33,469 bases of DNA, taken from contig NC_057755.1 of the NCBI RefSeq assembly GCF_004010195.1, positions 7,516,501 to 7,549,969 of the forward strand. Direction: 5' to 3'. The position numbers and the translations under genes are program-made. This document shows, one piece after another, positions 1,239 through 33,350 of the stretch. Under the pieces are notes generated by a model. The model was not told where the DNA came from and made no database searches. It saw nothing but the letters and a program-made list of their open reading frames with translations. Source of the stretch: Chiloscyllium plagiosum (lineage: Eukaryota). Within the stretch, counting starts at the first letter, position 1, and every line of letters starts with the position of its first letter.

Positions 1239-1452
1239 GAGGAGAAAGTGAGGTCTGCAGATGCTGGAAATCAGAGCTGAAAATGTGTTGCTGGAACAGC
1301 GCAGCAGGTCAGGCAGCATCCAGGGAACAAGAGAATCGACGTTTCGGGCATAAGGCCTTCCTGAAGAAGGGCTTATGCCCGAAACGTCGATTCTCTTGTT
1401 CCCTGGATGCTTCCTGACCTGCTGCACTGTTCCAGCAACACATTTTCAGCTC
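1239..1452. mobile_element. Foldback PLE-derived short element with hammerhead core and 14-bp TSD
   Basis: Inverted arms ~1273-1360 and ~1366-1453. TSD ttgccacctctcag at 1225-1238 and 1453-1466. Interrupts ORF2 of LINE B. Confidence 0.85.
1361..1388 (+). ncRNA. Minimal type I hammerhead ribozyme core (family A)
   Basis: CTGAAGA-A-GGGC-TTAT-GCCC-GAAA-CG-TC matches CUGANGA, stem II, GAAA and a UH site; ACGT palindrome in place of stem III. Confidence 0.75.
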
Positions 1453-3662
1453 TTGCCACCTCTCAGCCCAACTCTGCAGTTTATCCATGTCCCCCTGCAA
1501 CCTGTACATTCTTCCACATTGTCCACTACTCTACCAACTTTCGTGTCGTCTGCAAATGTAATTATCCATCCACCTATGCCTGCGTCTAAGAGATTTATAA
1601 AAAATGGCAGCCAGCAATGTTTCCCAAAACAGATCCTTGTGGCACACCATTAGTAACTGGACTCCAGACTGAATATTTTCCATCAAGCACTACTTTCTGC
1701 CTTCTTTCAGAAAGACAGTTTCTAATCCAAACTGCTAAATCACCCTCAATTCCATGCCTCTGCATTTTCTCCAATAGCCTACCATGTTGAACCTTATCAA
1801 AGGCTTTACTGAAGTCCATGTAGACCATATCAACTGCCCCACCCTCATTTACATGCTTGGTTATCTTCTCAAAAAACTCAATAAGGTTTATGAGACATGA
1901 CCTGCCCTTGATGAAACCATGTTGACTATCTGAAATCAAATTGTTGCTTGCTTGATGATTATAAATCTTATCTCTTATAATCCTTTCCAAAACCATTCCT
2001 GTAACAGAAGAAAGGCTCACTGGTGTATAATTACCTGGATTAACATTCCTTAATAATCTGTTGTGTGGAACTTTGTCAAATGTCCAGAAACACAACAGCC
2101 ACTGATTCAATCTTTTCCATGCTACTGGTTACATCCTCAAAAAAGAACACAAGATTTGTCAGGCATGATTTCCTCTCAGTGAAACCATGCAGACTTCTTC
2201 TGACCCTGACACCGCTTTCCAGTTCCTCTGTTATTACATCTGTAATCTTCGACTCCAACATTTTCCCCATCACCGATATCAGGCTAACCTGTCTGTAATT
2301 GCTTGTGTTCTCCTCTTTTTTTGAACAATGGGCCTTTACATAGTCTGGGATACAGTGCGTCAGACTCTTGGGGACATATTGGGTTTTAATTCCATCAATT
2401 CCCCAATACCATTTCCTGACAGTTAAGGATTTCCTTTAATTCCTCCTTCATGCTTGGTCCTCTATCCCATAGCATTTCTGGAAGATTATTTGCTTCGTCC
2501 TTGGTGAAGACTGGCCCAAAGTAGTTGATCCAACGGTATGTCATCTCTTTGATTTCCATTATAAATCCACATGACTCTAACGGCAAGGGACCCATACGTG
2601 TCTTCACCAGCCTTTTTCTTTTCACATATCGACAGAAACTTGTGCAGTCAGTTTTTTTTAATGTTTTACACAAGCTTACACTTGCATTCTATTTTCTCTT
2701 TCAGAATTAAATCCTTTGTACTCATCTGCTGGAATTTAAATTTCTCCAAGTCCTCAGTTTTGCTGATAACTTTTCTGAACACTTTGTACGCCTCCTCATT
2801 TTCTTTAACACGATCTGTGATTCCCTTGTTAGCCATGGTTGAGCCATGTTCCCAGATTTATGCTTTTCAACATAGGGGTGCGCAATCGTTGAGTTTCATC
2901 GACATGTTCTACAACTGTTTGCCATTGCCTATCCACCATCAAACTCTTAAGTATCCTTGGCCAGTTGATCCCAGCCAATCCATGCCTCATACCATCAAAG
3001 TTAGATCTCTTTAAGTTCAAAAGTCCAGTCCCAGATGTAACTGTGTCACTCTCTGTCTTAATGAAGAATTCTACCATAGTATGACCATGCTTACCCAAAG
3101 GATCTCCCATCACAAAGTTGCTAATTAATCCCCTCTCCTTAAACCACACCCAGTCTCGGATGGCTTCGTCTCTCATTGGTTCTCAACATATGAGACGAGA
3201 ACACCATCCCCTCTATATTCCAAGAAATCTTCCACCATCTCATTGCTACCAGTTTGATTAGATTGAAATTCCCTATAACTGCCACACCCTTATTTCAATA
3301 CCTGTAATATTCTGTTTTATGCAATCCCCATATGCACAACTATTGTTTGATGGTTTGTACACAATTCCCACAAATGTCTTTTCTTATCCACAGCTCCACG
3401 CATACTGATTCTACATCGTCCAGACCAATGTCCTTCTTTAGAATTGTGTTAACCTCTTTCTTAACCAACAACCTTCCACTGACCTCCTTTCATTTCCATC
3501 GATCTTTCCTGATGATTGAATGTTTGTGGATGTCGAGTTCCCATCCTTTGTCAGCCTGGAGCCCGGTCTCTGTGATCCCAATTACTCGAAATCATTAATA
3601 ACTGTTTGTGCAGTAAAATCTTCCACCTTATTAAAAATTATCATTGAAACACAGGGACTTCA

Positions 3663-3891
3663 GAGCTTAAAAATGTGTTGCTGGAAAAGCGCAGCAGGTC
3701 AGGCAGCGTCAAAAGAGCAGAAGAATCGATGTTTCGGGCATAAGCCCTTCTTCAGGGCTTCTTCCTGATGAAGGGCTTATGCCCGAAACGTCGATTCTCC
3801 TGCTCCTTTGATGCTGCCTGACCTGCTACGCTTTTCCAGCAACACATTTTTAAGCTCTGATCTTCAGCATCTGCAGTCCTCACTTTCTCCT
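3663..3891. mobile_element. Foldback PLE-derived short element with hammerhead cores on both strands and 14-bp TSD
   Basis: Arms ~3661-3755 and ~3765-3859. TSD acacagggacttca at 3649-3662 and 3892-3905. Same family as 1239-1452, opposite orientation. Confidence 0.85.
3765..3792 (+). ncRNA. Minimal type I hammerhead ribozyme core (family A)
   Basis: CTGATGA-A-GGGC-TTAT-GCCC-GAAA-CG-TC. Mirror copy on minus at 3728-3755 (CTGAAGAAGGGCTTATGCCCGAAACATC). Confidence 0.78.
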
Positions 3892-4847
3892 ACACAGGGA
3901 CTTCAACCACGTTTCCTTTTTGACTTCTATTGCTCTTTTAGAGTAATGTTGTAATATGACCCTTTTTGGATTTTATCTTTTATCGCTCTGCCTTCCATTT
4001 TCACCGTTCCCATACTGCCTTTGGTTTATGTTACCGCGTTCCTTCCCTCCGACTTCCTGAGCTGGTTTCCCTCCCCCTGCCGTATTTGCTAAAACCACCT
4101 TCAGACCTCCTCAAAGAGCCAAGATGAAGCTTTGCTGAGGTGTACAGTCTCCTTTGCTGAGGTGTACAACATCCAGCTCCTCCTACTCCCCGCTACCAAA
4201 CAGCCAAAAATAACCTGTGTCTACCAAGAGCAGTTGAGTCACCTGGAACAACATGGAACAGAATAGTTTGAAAGAAAATCAACAGTGAGGAGCAGCAAAG
4301 GGGAGAGCTCCAGTGCTGCAGAGATGGAGAATCGACAAAGATCTGTTATTTTACTGTTGCTTATTTCAGTCAACTTCCTTATATCATGTGCAATGTTAAT
4401 GTTTTATTGCATATGGAACCAGATGTGGTTCATTTGTATATCATTTTGGGTTTTTTGGTTTGAGTTGGAACTAAGTTTCATGCTGCAGCTCCTCAGTTGC
4501 TATATGAGCACTGGGATTTATACCATGACCCAGACAAAGTTCAGAGAGCAGCTGTAGATTATCTGGTTACTCTAATTCTCCATTTAATTCGTCAATGACT
4601 AGCACTGAGTCAGGAAGTCCAATGTTGTTCCAGCAGCAGGACGTGTGATAGCGTTGAGCAGGAGGTTGGTCACAAGGTTACATATTTGGCGGTTGCTTTA
4701 CCTGAAACACTACTCGGGTAGTGTCCCTCACCCATCCTCCTCCTTTAACCAAAATAAGAGTTCTGTGCGTCAGTTGGTAAGGTGGTAAGTGTTTTCTTTT
4801 GTGTTTCATTTTTACAGCGGATTGTTTGGGAATTTAAAATAGTGGGA

Positions 4848-5775: not shown

Positions 5776-6196
5776 TAATGCTGCAGGCGGGTGTGATCCT
5801 GAATTGCAGTTCCATTGTACCGGAGGTTGAGGGTAGTGAGCTCAGGGATAGGTTTACAAGGTCGCGAGAGGGCACCGGCAATCAGCATGTTGGTGTCAAA
5901 TGTGTGTACTTCAATGTCAGGAGCATCCGGGGTAAGACTGGGGATTTTGCAGCATGGGTTGGTACCTGAGATTTCGATGTTGTTGCCATGTCAGAGACAT
6001 GGCTAGAGCAGGGACAGGAATGGTTGATACAGGTTCTGGGATTTACAAGTTTCAGCAAGAACATAGAAAATGGTAAAAGGCGGGGTGTGGCGTTGTTAGT
6101 CAAGCATAGTATTACAACAGCTGAGGACTCATCCACTGAGGTAGCACGGGCTGAAGGCAGAAACAGGACAGGAGAGGTCACCCTGCTGAGAGGTTC

Positions 6197-6867
6197 CTAT
6201 AGGCCTCCGAATGTTTCCAGAGATGTAGAGGAAAGGATAGCAAAGATGATTCTCGATAGGAGCGAGAGTAACAGGGAGTTGTTATGGGGGACTTTAACCT
6301 CCCCAATATTGACTGGGATTTCTATAGTTGAAGTAGTTAAGATGGGTCATATTTTGTCCAAGGTGTGCAGGCAGTGTTCCTGACACAGTATGTAGACAGG
6401 CCAACAAGGAGTGAGGCCACCTTGGATTTGGTACTGGGGAATTAACTCGGCTAGCTGTTAGACTTGGAGATGGTGAGCACTTTGGCGACAGTGACCATAA
6501 TTCGGTTATGTTTACAATAGCGATAGGTACATACAGCAAGGAAAGAGGTATAACTGGGGTAAGGGCAATTATGATGGCATTAGGCAAGATTTAGGATGCA
6601 TAGGATGGGGAAGGAAACTACAGGGAATGGACACACTTGAAATGTGTATCTTATTCAAGGAACAGCTCCTGCAAATCCTTGATAAGTATAGGGCAGCACG
6701 GTGGCTCAGTGGTTAGCACTTCTGCCTCACAGCACCAGGGCCCCAGGTTCCATTCTGACCTCGGGCGACTGTCTGTGGGGAGTTTGCAAATTCTCCCCGC
6801 GTCTGTGTGGGTTTCCTCCAGGTGCTCCGGTTTCCTCCCACAGTCCAAAGATGTGCAGGTCAGGTAA
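6197..6867 (+). repeat. Donor copy of ~670-bp direct duplication
   Basis: Matches 7757-8425 apart from about 3 substitutions and a 2-bp indel. Confidence 0.95.
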
Positions 6868-7756: not shown

Positions 7757-8425
7757 CTATAGGCCTCCGAATGTTTCCAGAGATGTAGAAAAGGATAGCA
7801 AAGATGAATCTCGATAGGAGCGAGAGTAACAGGGAGTTGTTATGGGGGACTTTAACCTCCCCAATATTGACTGGGATTTCTATAGTTGAAGTAGTTAAGA
7901 TGGGTCATATTTTGTCCAAGGTGTGCAGGCGGTGTTCCTGACACAGTATGTAGACAGGCCAACAAGGAGTGAGGCCACCTTGGATTTGGTACTGGGGAAT
8001 TAACTCGGCTAGCTGTTAGACTTGGAGATGGTGAGCACTTTGGCGACAGTGACCATAATTCGGTTATGTTTACAATAGCGATAGGTACATACAGCAAGGA
8101 AAGAGGTATAACTGGGGTAAGGGCAATTATGATGGCATTAGGCAAGATTTAGGATGCATAGGATGGGGAAGGAAACTACAGGGAATGGACACACTTGAAA
8201 TGTGTATCTTATTCAAGGAACAGCTCCTGCAAATCCTTGATAAGTATAGGGCAGCACGGTGGCTCAGTGGTTAGCACTTCTGCCTCACAGCACCAGGGCC
8301 CCAGGTTCCATTCTGACCTCGGGCGACTGTCTGTGGGGAGTTTGCAAATTCTCCCCGTGTCTGTGTGGGTTTCCTCCAGGTGCTCCGGTTTCCTCCCACA
8401 GTCCAAAGATGTGCAGGTCAGGTAA
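7757..8425 (+). repeat. Inserted copy of 6197-6867 (LINE endonuclease segment plus 5' half of SINE)
   Basis: Direct comparison. The copy interrupts the SQHGF region of LINE C ORF2. Confidence 0.95.
8249..8425 (+). mobile_element. 3'-truncated HE1-like SINE carried by the duplication
   Basis: Near-identical to 6691-6867. Confidence 0.9.
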
Positions 8426-17383: not shown

Positions 17384-17587
17384 AAAAGCACATCAGTTCA
17401 GGCAGAATACGAGGAGCAGGAAAATCGACGTTTCGGGCAAATGTCTTTCATCAGGATTCCTGATGAACGGCTTTTGCCTGAAACGTCGATTTTCCTGCTC
17501 CTCGGATGCTGCCTGAATTGCTTTGCTTTTCCAGCAACTTTCTACTCCAGTATCTGATTTCCAGCATCTGCAAGTCATGATTTTTAC
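17384..17587. mobile_element. Foldback PLE-derived short element with hammerhead core, inserted in ERV pol
   Basis: Centre ttcatcaggattcctgatgaa. Plus core CTGATGA-A-CGGC-TTTT-GCCT-GAAA-CGTC from 17460. TSD ctattttgca(a/t)tgg at 17370-17383 and 17588-17601 (14 bp, 1 mismatch). Confidence 0.8.
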
Positions 17588-19210: not shown

Positions 19211-19467
19211 TCCGCTGTAGTGGGCGGTATATTGGGTCCAGGTCTATGTGTTTGTTGATGGAGTTTGTGGATGAGTGCCATGCTTCTAGGAATTCCCTGG
19301 CTGTTCTTTGTTTGGCTTGCCCTATAATGGTAGTGTTGTCCCAGTCAAATTCATGTTGCTTGTCATCTGCGTGTGTGGCAACTAGGGATAGCTGGTCGTG
19401 TCGTTTCGTGGCTAGTTGATGTTCGTGGATGTGGATCGTTAGCTGTCTTCCTGTTTGTCCTATATAG
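19211..19467 (-). mobile_element. Penelope-like element GIY-YIG fragment, inverted copy
   Basis: Reverse complement of 19632-19888 with scattered substitutions; runs into the gap. Confidence 0.9.
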
Positions 19468-19632
19468 TGTATCTGGTAGTTTGGATATCAATGCCAGGAC
19501 TGCCCATGGGCGTCCATTCTCCAAGGCCAATCTAATATTCGAACTGTTGCTGATATCACCCCACCAAATCCATTAATATTTATTCTGGGCCCCTACGTCT
19601 ATGAGGGGTTGCCATGTATAAACGTAAAAGCC

Positions 19633-19998
19633 TATATAGGACAAACGGGAAGACGGCTAACGATCCGCATCCACGAACATCAACTAGCCACGAAACGACG
19701 CGACCAGCTATCCTTAGTAGCCACACACGCAGACGACAAGCAACATGAATTTGACTGGGACAACACTACCATTATAGGGCAAGCGAAACAAAGAACAGCC
19801 AGGGAATTCATAGAAGCTTGGCACTCATCCACAAATTCCATCAACAAACACATCGACTTGGAGCCAATATACCGGCCACTACAGCGGACAGCTGAAGCTG
19901 ACAACCGGAAGTGGCAGGGACAGGCCACTATAAATGCCGGAGGAAACACCACAGAAGCGCTTCACAGGAGGCTCCCAAGCACTGAGGATGTCACCTAG
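19633..19998 (+). pseudogene. GIY-YIG endonuclease fragment of a PLE (open frame, but lacks the GIY half and RT)
   Basis: YIG motif and conserved R, EH, E and N. The first 8 aa of ORF 19609 derive from unrelated duplicated ERV sequence. Confidence 0.85.
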
Positions 19999-20018
19999 AC
20001 AGGCGACGAAACGTTTGC
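19979..20018 (+). ncRNA. Minimal type I hammerhead ribozyme (family B)
   Basis: Stem I GCA/TGC; CTGAGGA; T; stem II GTCACCT-AGAC-AGGCGAC (6 of 7 pairs); GAAA; CG; TT (GUU site). Confidence 0.85.
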
Positions 20019-20096
20019 AACAAAAACTTCCAGCTCGGCGAACAGAACCACAGCAACAAGCACCCGAGCTACAAATCTTCTCACAAACTTTGAAAT

Positions 20097-26319: not shown

Positions 26320-26466
26320 CTTTTTTTGGATTAGTGGTGCTGGAAGAGCACAGCAGTTCAGGCAGCATCCGAGGAGCAGCTCCTCGGATGCTGCCTGAAC
26401 TGCTGTGCTCTTCCAGCACCACTAATCCAAAATCTGGTTTCCAGCATCTGCAGTCATTGCTTTTAC
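26320..26466. mobile_element. Foldback element with perfect 54-bp arms and deleted hammerhead core
   Basis: Arms 26324-26377 and 26379-26432 with a 1-nt spacer. Flanked by ctcact(g/c)aaagat at 26307-26319 and 26467-26479. Confidence 0.85.
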
Positions 26467-26474
26467 CTCACTCA

Positions 26475-26810
26475 AAGATTAGACTGGTGCTGGAAAAGCA
26501 CAACAGGTTAGACAGCATTTGAGAAGCAGGAAAATCGACGTTTTGGACAAAAGCCCTTCATCAAGAATGGAGGCAGGGAGACTCCAGGGTGGAGAGATGA
26601 ATGGGAGGGTGTGGGGCTGGGGAGAAGGTAGCAAACAGTAGAATAGATGGATAGGTGTCAGGATGAAGGTGATGTGTCAGAAAGGAGGGTGGAGCGGATA
26701 GGGGGAAGGACGATTGGCAGGTAGGACTGGTCCTGAGGATGGTGCTGAGCTGTAAGTTTGGAACTGGGGTAAGATGGGGGAGGGGAATGAGGAAACTGGT
26801 GAAGTCCCCT
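26475..26810 (-). mobile_element. Longer non-palindromic 3' end of the family A PLE with degenerate hammerhead
   Basis: Minus strand TTGATGAAGGGCTTTTGTCCAAAACGTC at 26537-26564; same downstream tail as the foldbacks; ~245 bp of upstream pyrimidine-rich sequence. Confidence 0.7.
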
Positions 26811-26814
26811 CTAT

Positions 26815-28655: not shown

Positions 28656-28750
28656 GAAGTTGGTGGGAAGATTTGTAGCTCGAGTGCTGGTTGTTGTGGT
28701 TCTGTTCGCCGAGCTGGGAATTTGTGTTGCAGACGTTTCAATCCCTGTCT
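28656..28750 (-). mobile_element. ~95-bp PLE 3' tail (family B) truncated within hammerhead stem II
   Basis: Reverse complement agacagggattgaaacgtctgcaacacaaattcccagctcggcgaacagaaccac...gagctacaaatctt aligns with 19997-20090. Confidence 0.85.
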
Positions 28751-28783: not shown

Positions 28784-30235
28784 CTACTTTCCGCCAAACA
28801 GGTTAAAACTATGACCCCTCGTGTTAACAATTTCTGCCCTGGGAAAAAGTTTCTGGTTATCAACTCTATCTATGCCTCTCATTATCTTGTACACCTCAAT
28901 TTGGTCCCCTCTCTTCCTTCTTTTTTCCAATGATAAACTTCTGAGCTCAGTCAACCTCTCTTTGTAAGAAAAGCCCTTCTTTCCAGGCAGCATCCTGGTA
29001 AACCTCCCCTGAACCCTCTCCAAAGCATTCACATCTTTCCTGTAATAGGGCGACCAGAACTGGACACAATATTCCAAGTGCGGTCTAACCAAAGTTTTAT
29101 GGAGCTGCAACAAGATCTTACGGCTCTTAAACGCAATCCCCCTGTTAATGAAAGCCAAAACACCATATGCTTTCTTAACAACCCTGTCAAATTGAATGGC
29201 AATTTTAAGGGATCTATGTGCCTGCACACGAAGATCCCTCTGTTCCTCCACACTGCCAAGAATCCTATCCTTAATCCTGTACTCAACTTTCAAGTTCGAC
29301 CTTCCAAAATACATCACCTCGCATTTATCCAGGTTTAACTCCATCTGCCACCTCTCAGCCCATCTCTGCATCCTGTCAATGTCATGCTGCAGCTGACAAC
29401 AGTCCTGTATACTGTCAACTACACCTCCAACCTTTGTGTCGTCTGCAAACCTGCTGACCCATCCTTCAATCTCCTCACCCAAGACATTAATAAAAATTAC
29501 AAACAGTAGAGACCCAAGAACAGAGCCCTGTGGAACACCACTCACTACAGACTTCCAGGCAGAATACTTTCCTTCCACTACCACTCGCTGTCTTCTGTCA
29601 ACCAGCCAATTCTGTATCCAGACTGCTACATTCCCTGTATCCCATTCCTCCTAACCTTCTGAATGAGCCTACCATGGAGAACCTTATCAAATGACGTTCT
29701 GAAGTCCTTATTCACAACATCCACTGCTCGACCCTCATCAACTTTTCTGGTAACATCCTCAAAGAACTCGATAAGGTTTGTGAGGCATTACCTGCTCCTC
29801 ACAAAGCCGTGTTGACTTCCTTTAATCAAGCCATGCTCTTCCAGATCGTCATAAATTCTATCCCTCACAATCCTTTCTAACACCTTGCAGATGAAAGACG
29901 TGAGACTGACTGGTCTGTAATTGCTGGGGATTCCTCTATTTCCTTTCTTGAAGAGAGGAATTACATTTGCCTCCCTCCAGTCCTGAGGTATGACTCCGGT
30001 AGAGAGCGATGATGCAAAGATCTTCACAAGCGGCGAAGCAATCACATTTCTCGCTTCCCAAAGCAGCCGAAGACAAATCTGGTCTGACTCTGGCAACTTG
30101 TCAATCTTAATGTTTGTCAAACTTTTCAACACATCAACTTCCTCAATCTCAATCTGTTCCAGCATGCACACCTGCTCCTCAATGGTTTCATTCACTACCA
30201 GGTTCTTTACTTTAGTAAAGACAGATGCAAAAAAA
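28784..30235 (-). mobile_element. CR1 LINE ORF2 fragment (copy H), best-preserved RT in the window
   Basis: ORF 28784-29584 (266 aa) GVPQGSVLG..FADDTK..RPHLEYCVQFWSP..TRGH; ORF 29788-30195 NYRPVSLTS..SQHGF. Confidence 0.92.
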
Positions 30236-32634: not shown

Positions 32635-33350
32635 TGATTTGGAGATGCTGGTGTTGGAATGGGGTGTATAAAGTTAAAAATTACACAATACCAGGTTAGA
32701 GTCCAACAGGTTTAATTGGAAGCACACTAGCTTTCGGAGCGTCGTTCCTTCATCAGGTGGTTGTGGAGGACACAGTTGTAAGACACAGAATTTACAGCAA
32801 AAACTTACAGTGTGAAGTAACTGAAATTATACATTGAAAATACCTTGATTATTTGTTGAGTCTTTCATCTGTCAGAAAACCATGAAAGCTTCATTTCTTT
32901 CATCTGTAAATCACAAAACTTTTTTTAAAGGTTACGTTCTCAGGTTAAATGTAACAATTGGTGTCAGACAGATATGTTGAAGGTGTTCGCCCCCTGTGTT
33001 CCCTGTCTGTGCCATAATGTTTAGATTGATTCTAATCTAAAATGTGAGTTAACAGAGTCTTACATGGATTCATTCATTTTTTGAGCAAAGTACAATGTAA
33101 CTCTGCAAGTACAAATTCACCCCAGAAACATATATATCTATGTGTGCTAGTGGGTTTGTGTGTGTCTGTGTCTGTCTGTGTGTCTGTCTGTCTGTCTGGG
33201 GTTGGGGATTGTGAGAATGAGAAAAAGTGCATATGTGTGTGTATGAGATTGTAGAGTGTCCAGCTGTGTGAGAGGGTGCATGTGTGTGTGTTGTAGGAGT
33301 GTGTGGGTGAGAGTTGGGGAGGGGTAAGGGATTGTGATTGTCAGTGAGAG
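32635..33350 (-). mobile_element. PLE-type 3' terminal region with hammerhead (family D) and TG/CA-rich tract
   Basis: Hammerhead ~90 nt from the presumed 3' end; tail ccaacaccagcatctcca resembles the ccagcatctgca tail of family A; TG-rich at 33158-33310. Confidence 0.6.
32725..32759 (-). ncRNA. Minimal type I hammerhead ribozyme (family D)
   Basis: Stem I CAC/GTG; CTGATGA; A; stem II GGAAC-GAC-GCTCC (4 of 5 pairs); GAAA; GC; TA; AGCT palindrome. Confidence 0.8.

Follow-up and report, generated by a model that had tools for sequence, protein, structure and literature searches.

A foldback insert with hammerhead motifs in Chiloscyllium plagiosum, probably a dead, truncated Penelope-like element with a mirror half built on landing

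INTRODUCTION

What kind of element leaves a short insert made of two inverted arms with a hammerhead-shaped core on each strand, how did its mirror half arise, and does its RNA do anything? These questions are raised by a locus of Chiloscyllium plagiosum on contig NC_057755.1. The window, that is the whole stretch of DNA analyzed, comprises 33,469 nt (positions 7,516,501 to 7,549,969, forward strand), and all coordinates below are counted from its first letter. The locus lies at 3649–3905, and its insert is called c2.

Insertions of Penelope-like elements (PLEs) often carry an inverted, 5′-truncated copy at the 5′ end and a 30–40-bp tail on one end (PMC8557442, PMC8969392; for the 30–40-nt tail also PMC3846280 and PMC11167929; these and the following papers are cited from the parts available). 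Rotifer examples have a 31-bp tail, target-site duplications (TSDs) of 8–10 bp, and palindromes at the head-to-head junctions (PMC3846280), and Penelope of D. virilis has a 34-bp repeat together with inverted terminal repeats (PMC2377424). How the inverted copies and tails arise has been described as an unsolved question (PMC8557442). The PLE protein of Anolis, a predicted dimer, nicks both strands and extends them; its two adjacent start sites define the tail, and mutants of the hammerhead left insertion unchanged (PMC11167929).

RESULTS

Anatomy of the insert

The features of c2 are as follows (coordinates, strand, description).

3649..3662, no strand: left TSD, 14 bp, identical to 3892–3905; it overlaps the first motif of a LINE endonuclease, decayed and encoded on the minus strand
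3663..3756, minus: short arm, an inverted copy without tail, equal to 3764–3857 of the long arm; its end shares at most 3 nt of microhomology with the TSD
3728..3755, minus: minimal hammerhead core, damaged (CUGAAGA-A, helix II of 4 bp, GAAAC-AUC)
3757..3763, plus: spacer of 7 nt at the fold center, resembling the family sequence in front of the core
3764..3891, plus: long arm with tail, the last ~130 nt of a PLE-type terminal repeat; bounded by family depth in runs X1, X14, and X21
3765..3792, plus: minimal type I hammerhead core, intact in sequence (C3 at 3765, extra A at 3772, helix II at 3773–3784, ACGU at 3788–3791)
3858..3891, plus: tail of 34 nt (31 without microhomology), on one arm only; the same asymmetry and the same short-arm end occur in foldback c1 (below)
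3892..3905, no strand: right TSD, identical to the left one; one contig of organism B crosses the junction

The 229-bp insert is thus enclosed by an exact 14-bp direct repeat, ACACAGGGACTTCA, which has no third occurrence in the window (~3e-9 per site by composition). A sequence-only reading of this DNA had described at this place a foldback with a 14-bp TSD and cores 9 nt apart, and its coordinates are all borne out. The inverted arms, 3660–3756 and 3764–3860, are 97 nt each with 7 nt between them, and they are 94% complementary: 6 of the 97 positions are unlike, five of them by transitions. The same reading held that a read-through RNA would carry the ribozyme and its perfect antisense, which these six differences contradict. 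The two halves are also unequal, with the right arm extending 31–34 nt past the inverted repeat. The spacer probably represents what naturally precedes the long arm, apart from two changes, judging from its similarity to the end of the loose-end consensus ahead of 3762 (runs X1 and X14) and to the sequence upstream of the single arm c5 at 26565–26575.

One contig of organism B (run X14) covers 3865–3955, with tail, TSD, and flank, and differs at nine letters. The insertion is therefore probably older than the split of the two organisms. An assembly artefact as the source of c2 is ruled out by the exact TSD, the 6% divergence and unequal length of the arms, the empty-site context, and this contig.

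The insertion site

The flanks of c2 belong to a decayed LINE on the minus strand, with an RVT_1 match at 1595–2128. Once the TSD is counted a single time, the LINE peptide W-L-K-S-L-C-F-N is readable across the site. We take this peptide to be the start of the LINE endonuclease; a similar motif, the likeness being judged by eye, lies near 5895. For c1, the empty-site check gave an intact LINE paralog near 29345–29359 that carries the c1 TSD once. With regard to the AT-rich target preference of endonuclease-bearing (EN+) PLEs, the AT content of the 12 nt to the left of the TSD is 75%, 83%, 75%, and 50% for c1 to c4, on one side and at four sites only.

Other copies and abundance of the family

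The long arm of c2 matches ten pieces in the window, itself included (886 bp, 2.6%). Among these are four head-to-head foldbacks (c1 to c4), a single arm (c5), and a 40-bp fragment. Besides c2, the main copies are the following.

1239..1452, minus: foldback c1, in the opposite orientation; TSD 1225–1238 = 1453–1466; one whole core and a 5-nt loop at the center
17384..17587, plus: foldback c3, of a more diverged subfamily; two cores; 14-bp TSD with one mismatch
26320..26466, plus: foldback c4, folded downstream from the core and hence without hammerhead; 13-bp TSD with one mismatch
26480..26812, minus: single arm c5, with ~250 nt extra upstream, probably the natural terminal repeat; upstream boundary judged by eye

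A tail on one arm and a TSD of 13–14 bp are found in all four foldbacks, and the TSD is exact in c1 and c2. The c1 tail has 34 nt (31 without microhomology), as in c2. No TSD was found around c5.

For abundance, public runs were compared with 3757–3960 at 85% likeness. Family contigs number 74,185 in run X1 and 82,190 in X14, a depth that is not equal to copy number, and family RNA accounts for 3,358 of 12,955,460 records in X21. In the two DNA-type runs (X1 and X14) and in the RNA run (X21), the family depth climbs at 3762–3770 and drops at 3891/3892. Mixed, non-family letters precede 3762 in 1,433 contigs of X1 and in 1,451 of X14, and the contigs of X1 indicate that many family copies are not foldbacks. 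No joint at the head-to-head center occurs among the 15 of 56 joints listed. Since palindromes can be expected to drop out of contig graphs and short-read libraries, the true share of foldbacks genome-wide is not readable from these joints. Head-to-tail-like joints from 3890 to 3762 are present in 11 contigs of X1 and seven of X14. Joints at 3792/3793 coincide with the predicted cut of the hammerhead; they were discarded as a sign of cleavage, since 3762–3792 is one 31-letter word of the contig graph.

The hammerhead cores

The signature of the minimal hammerheads (min-HHRs) of PLEs consists of the core boxes, an extra base between 9 and 10.1, the pair G10.1–C11.1, and a palindromic ACGU that replaces helix III (Cervera and de la Pena 2014, PMC4209133). 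The plus core of c2 has the whole of it: CUGANGA, GAAA, and UH boxes, the extra base 9–10.1, G10.1–C11.1, and the palindromic 15.1–16.1. Its predicted cut falls after 3792. Helix I has only two contiguous base pairs, followed by U–U and C–U, and falls short of the 4–5 bp of metazoan PLE min-HHRs; helix II has 4 bp, compared with 7–8 in S. mansoni (PMC4209133). The minus core has lost G16.2 (to A, at 3730), unlike the min-HHRs of the same paper, and its ACGU palindrome is broken. Each strand of c2 carries one core, and the two are separated by 9 nt, whereas the opposite-strand pairs of minimal hammerheads reported in S. mansoni lie 100–700 bp apart (PMC4209133). The earlier claim of hammerhead cores on both strands stands, then, for the plus strand as far as sequence goes; on the minus strand only a core damaged at G16.2 is left.

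A degenerate core pattern (at most three mismatches) matches the window six times, whereas each of 100 shuffles gave no match. The covariance models of Rfam gave no hammerhead match in the window (E ≤ 1) nor on 3750–3840 (E ≤ 10), and the 27-nt core pattern has no exact match among the viral, metagenome, and prokaryote genome contigs searched. A microRNA reading of c2 was dropped, with Rfam giving only subthreshold hairpins (for example mir-680, 41.4 bits against a gathering score of 104).

The loss of G16.2 is also a frequent CpG decay in the family (16% of the depth in X1), and the CpG positions of the core, G12 included, are changed in 8%–16% of that depth, a rate as expected under neutral decay. 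In vitro, minimal PLE hammerheads gave no monomer cleavage and low dimer cleavage (PMC4209133). Cleavage of c2 would be improbable even for an unmasked core, which is minimal and of the dimer type, with a 2-bp helix I and no partner on the same strand of the insert. The motif is better classed as a core remnant, unlikely to work as a ribozyme.

Folding, transcription, and editing of the RNA

For the plus strand of c2, the predicted fold has an energy of −185.7 kcal/mol (z −24.4) and comprises helices of 32, 21, 6, 29, and 6 pairs; forcing the hammerhead-shaped plus core within the full c2 RNA costs 44.8 kcal/mol. A read-through RNA is thus predicted to form a hairpin of ~94 bp that buries the hammerhead; the masking of the ribozyme, proposed earlier, agrees with these folding energies.

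In run X21, family RNA reads occur on both strands. No pile-up of RNA ends over the family was seen in the ~2% of the run covered, from a fragmented poly(A) library that is a poor test of cleavage, and in the same ~2% no RNA depth was seen on the right flank of c2 past 3903.

The mapping of A-to-I editing onto these repeats, suggested with the sequence-only reading, drew on 36 variant rows, namely the 40 listed (of 67) less four from the flank; seven more rows in an indel-rich zone and three majority variants were then dropped. Among the X21 family reads, three A>G rows tilt to the strand expected for editing (log2 odds 1.4, 2.3, and 2.2), and five T>C rows barely do so (−0.3 to 0.9); the 18 other variant rows range from −2.0 to 1.2. 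The A>G strand bias has a one-sided p of 0.012, post hoc, and two of the three dropped T>C rows tilt the wrong way. The outcome is mixed, a weak A>G signal and hardly any bias in T>C, and gives a weak hint of A-to-I editing of family RNA, at the level of the family and not of the c2 locus. A few expressed loci, in RNA without matched DNA, could yield the A>G signal as well. In Xenopus, the family with the most editing is a palindromic repeat (PMC5625713, in the part available), so that editing of foldbacks would be no new principle.

These data bear on a reading as an active ribozyme switch, in which the hairpin would have been retained for the control of self-cleavage or as a supply of substrate for ADAR or Dicer. 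The great stability of the hairpin, the enrichment of the three A>G rows on one RNA strand, and the Xenopus precedent speak for it. The insert lies, however, within a decayed LINE, helix I has 2 bp, the minus core is damaged, min-HHRs cleave at best poorly in vitro, and X21, for the share covered, has neither a pile of RNA ends nor depth past 3903. We regard such a switch as very improbable.

Assignment to Penelope-like elements

PLE membership of the c2 family is assigned by anatomy and motif: c2 has a head-to-head, inverted, 5′-truncated copy, a tail on one side, a short TSD, and a hammerhead motif in the terminal repeat. It is probably a dead, 5′-truncated PLE insertion, with a mirror half that was probably built on landing. 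This layout is already described for PLEs, and c2 adds another example of a known anatomy. No ORF with reverse transcriptase (RT) or GIY-YIG domain was linked to the family by two homolog searches (0 of 112 and 0 of 1 candidates). At 19211–20090, the window contains a second PLE family, one piece of which is inverted. Its peptide at 19621–19920 has 14 homologs among 57 candidates, the best match being an RT-bearing protein of Chiloscyllium punctatum (88% identity), with 59% to a GIY-YIG protein. Judging from these homologs, the host is carpet-shark-like and has PLEs; that element is of a family different from that of c2. No account of the c2 family was found in the published work within reach of the search, which lay outside the repeat databases and most subscription journals.

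MITEs and palindromic DNA transposons are bounded on both sides by symmetric terminal inverted repeats, and their interior is constant. In c2, one arm is 34 nt longer than the other, and the centers differ in all four foldbacks, which sets this class aside. Non-LTR retrozymes consist of at least two head-to-tail units with a hammerhead each, and no such tandem array was found in the window.

Origin of the palindrome

The four foldbacks are joined differently. At the center, c1 has a 5-bp stem with a 5-nt loop, c2 a 7-nt spacer, and c3 a 3-nt loop immediately ahead of its two cores; the fold of c4 lies ~10 nt beyond the predicted cut site, with a 1-nt loop. The fold junction of c2 had been said to differ from that of the copy at 1239, and so it does, c1 having only one whole core. 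In three of the four foldbacks, the short arms start at the equivalent of 3762–3764. In c1 and c2, the outer ends are fixed: the short arms stop at the equivalent of 3857 and the long arms at 3891/3892. Both 3′ ends of the c2 arms face the target DNA, one per end point.

Among the four arms of c1 and c2, the six informative sites all group by locus, none by arm type and none crosswise, for these two loci. Over 70 columns, the arms differ by 3 and 5 within a locus and by 7–11 between loci. The grouping by locus suggests that the palindromes were probably built at each insertion, which, with the four unlike centers, upholds the earlier proposal that they formed independently. Construction at insertion, supported by these comparisons, would still leave room for several palindromic masters or for gene conversion between arms.

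One alternative is a nonautonomous palindromic element with palindromic masters of its own, moved whole. The identical outer ends and similar lengths of c1 and c2 (214 and 229 bp) would follow, and both short arms have A at core position 7. Yet the four centers are unlike, c4 folds downstream from the core, none of the six sites groups by arm type, and the single arm c5 and the many contigs with unrelated letters ahead of the core do not fit; this origin appears improbable. The arms might also have been homogenized by gene conversion after insertion, or the palindrome might result from a later DNA repair at a single-arm insert. The sharing of private variants within a locus fits this as well, and the arms of c3 (10 differences in 69 columns) are about as far apart as the left arms of c3 and c2 (10 in 70). 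As the TSD borders the pair of arms precisely and both of their outer ends are end points of the whole family, later conversion or repair has only a slight chance of being the explanation.

DISCUSSION

How the mirror half may have been built

If the palindrome was built on landing, two routes can be compared. In the first, a PLE protein acting in trans would nick both target strands 14 bp apart, and both nicks would serve as primers for reverse transcription, either of one and the same RNA or of two RNAs with a common source. One copy would start at the tail end (3891/3892) and the other ~34 nt inside (3857). The two would end close to the front of the hammerhead, and their cDNA 3′ ends would be joined with 0–5 nt of microhomology. 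The hammerhead would be a passenger under neutral decay. For the mirror half, we give this two-primer route an even chance. In the second route, a single cDNA would fold back at its 3′ end and copy itself, and an endonuclease would trim the tail from one arm. Such self-priming has been proposed from palindromes at inverted junctions (PMC3846280), and it agrees with the small centers of c1 (5-bp stem, 5-nt loop) and c4 (1-nt loop) and with the private variants common to both arms. In c1, however, it is the short arm whose 5′ end is fuller, so that the copied arm would have to exceed its template, and a simple snap-back could not extend the short arm into the tail. Nor does snap-back explain the arms of c2 at core position 7, with A in one and T in the other (the position is 46% A in X1), a mismatch that counts against a single template. 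Priming from two nicks would cover all four foldbacks and snap-back three of them; snap-back is possible but doubtful.

With two primers, the stop at the front of the core rather than at the cut site (3792/3793) possibly reflects an RNA start or a stop of the RT. A joint reading can be framed in which an RNA of ~130 nt, beginning at the hammerhead front, would be the true template; a dimeric PLE protein would prime from both nicks at two fixed sites and join the products head to head, and the resulting ~95-bp hairpins would be a main A-to-I substrate in sharks. Taken as a whole, this is unlikely. A special case, in which the two start sites would be the branch point and the 3′ splice site of an intron, is highly improbable: it was lowered by the start of the Anolis element at two sites without splicing (PMC11167929, in the part available), by the G of c4 at the A concerned, and by the end of the second PLE family, which is without such features.

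Comparison with known systems

The insertions of EN+ PLEs (Arkhipova et al. 2013, PMC3846280; Craig et al. 2021, PMC8557442; as far as the available text goes) resemble c2 in the inverted copy, the tail, the TSD, and the near-palindromic junction. The foldback copies of the c2 family differ in being cut to 94–135 nt, with no ORF between, and their TSDs have 13–14 bp in c1 to c4, against the 8–10 bp of rotifer PLEs (PMC3846280). With Poseidon of Anolis carolinensis (PAc; Frangieh et al. 2024, PMC11167929), the family shares a pair of fixed 3′ end points, which lie downstream from the hammerhead motif and are separated by roughly the length of a tail. PAc was tested in vitro, and the available text on it describes no short double-ended foldbacks; the c2 family is known from its sequences and, with no ORF linked to it, is placed in no clade (Poseidon or Neptune).

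In the available text on non-LTR retrozymes (Li et al. 2026, bioRxiv 10.64898/2026.07.22.740005), these are likewise noncoding and PLE-derived, with a type I hammerhead motif, but they are defined as head-to-tail tandems; c2 is head to head, with one core per strand. The palindromic Harbinger repeats of Xenopus tropicalis, which are ADAR targets (PMC5625713, in the part available), are also self-folding, ~200 bp long, and of high copy number. There, the repeat is that of a DNA transposon and editing is shown; c2 is the product of a retroelement, with a hint of editing for its family.

Meaning for the family

The c2 locus in itself is ordinary, a decaying retroelement stump within a dead LINE. 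Short double-ended inserts of this kind, with both ends and the center within 230 bp, make priming from two nicks and snap-back testable from an assembly alone. Transcription of many of the copies, if it occurs, would also provide much self-folding double-stranded RNA. If the joint reading were true, shark genomes would hold a huge natural record of the unsolved step of PLE integration.

The arms of the foldback and its tail

The two arms of the foldback at 3663-3891 disagree at core position 7, with T at 3769 and A at 3751, despite other private variants being common to both. In the public sequencing run X1, this position is 46% A. A single template does not explain the T/A difference.

The tail of the long arm (3857-3893) has a branch-point-like CTGAT at its start and a pyrimidine tract at its end. 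In other copies of the family, AG is apparently next after the tail. From sequence, the CTGAT, the pyrimidine tract and this AG together look like a 3′ splice site. Such a pattern is not general across the PLE families compared, and PAc, the Poseidon PLE of Anolis carolinensis, has no need for it in vitro (PMC11167929).

Other repeats and head-to-tail joints

A sister foldback, c4, directly abuts the 3′ end of the single arm c5 (the two together span 26320-26812), which suggests that c4 landed beside an older family copy. Another PLE family, distinct from that of the foldback at 3663-3891, occurs at 19211-20090, with an assembly gap adjoining its inverted piece. Its features and a further core are:

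19211-19467 / 19632-19888, arms of the inverted piece (257 nt)
19621-19920, end of a GIY-YIG-like ORF
19982-20015, the family's own minimal hammerhead
28657-28750, additional copy of the family's end
32728-32756 (-), one more hammerhead-like core, its sequence being of a third type

LINE sequence holds 99% identical repeats (6229-6849 and 7787-8407, 1,558 bp apart). The pair stems either from a local duplication that happened recently or from overlap in the assembly. Among the public runs, X1 has 11 contigs and X14, a second run, has 7 in which the ~130-nt unit of the family at 3663-3891 meets itself in a head-to-tail-like joint (3890 to 3762); these could be retrozyme-like tandems providing same-strand hammerhead pairs.
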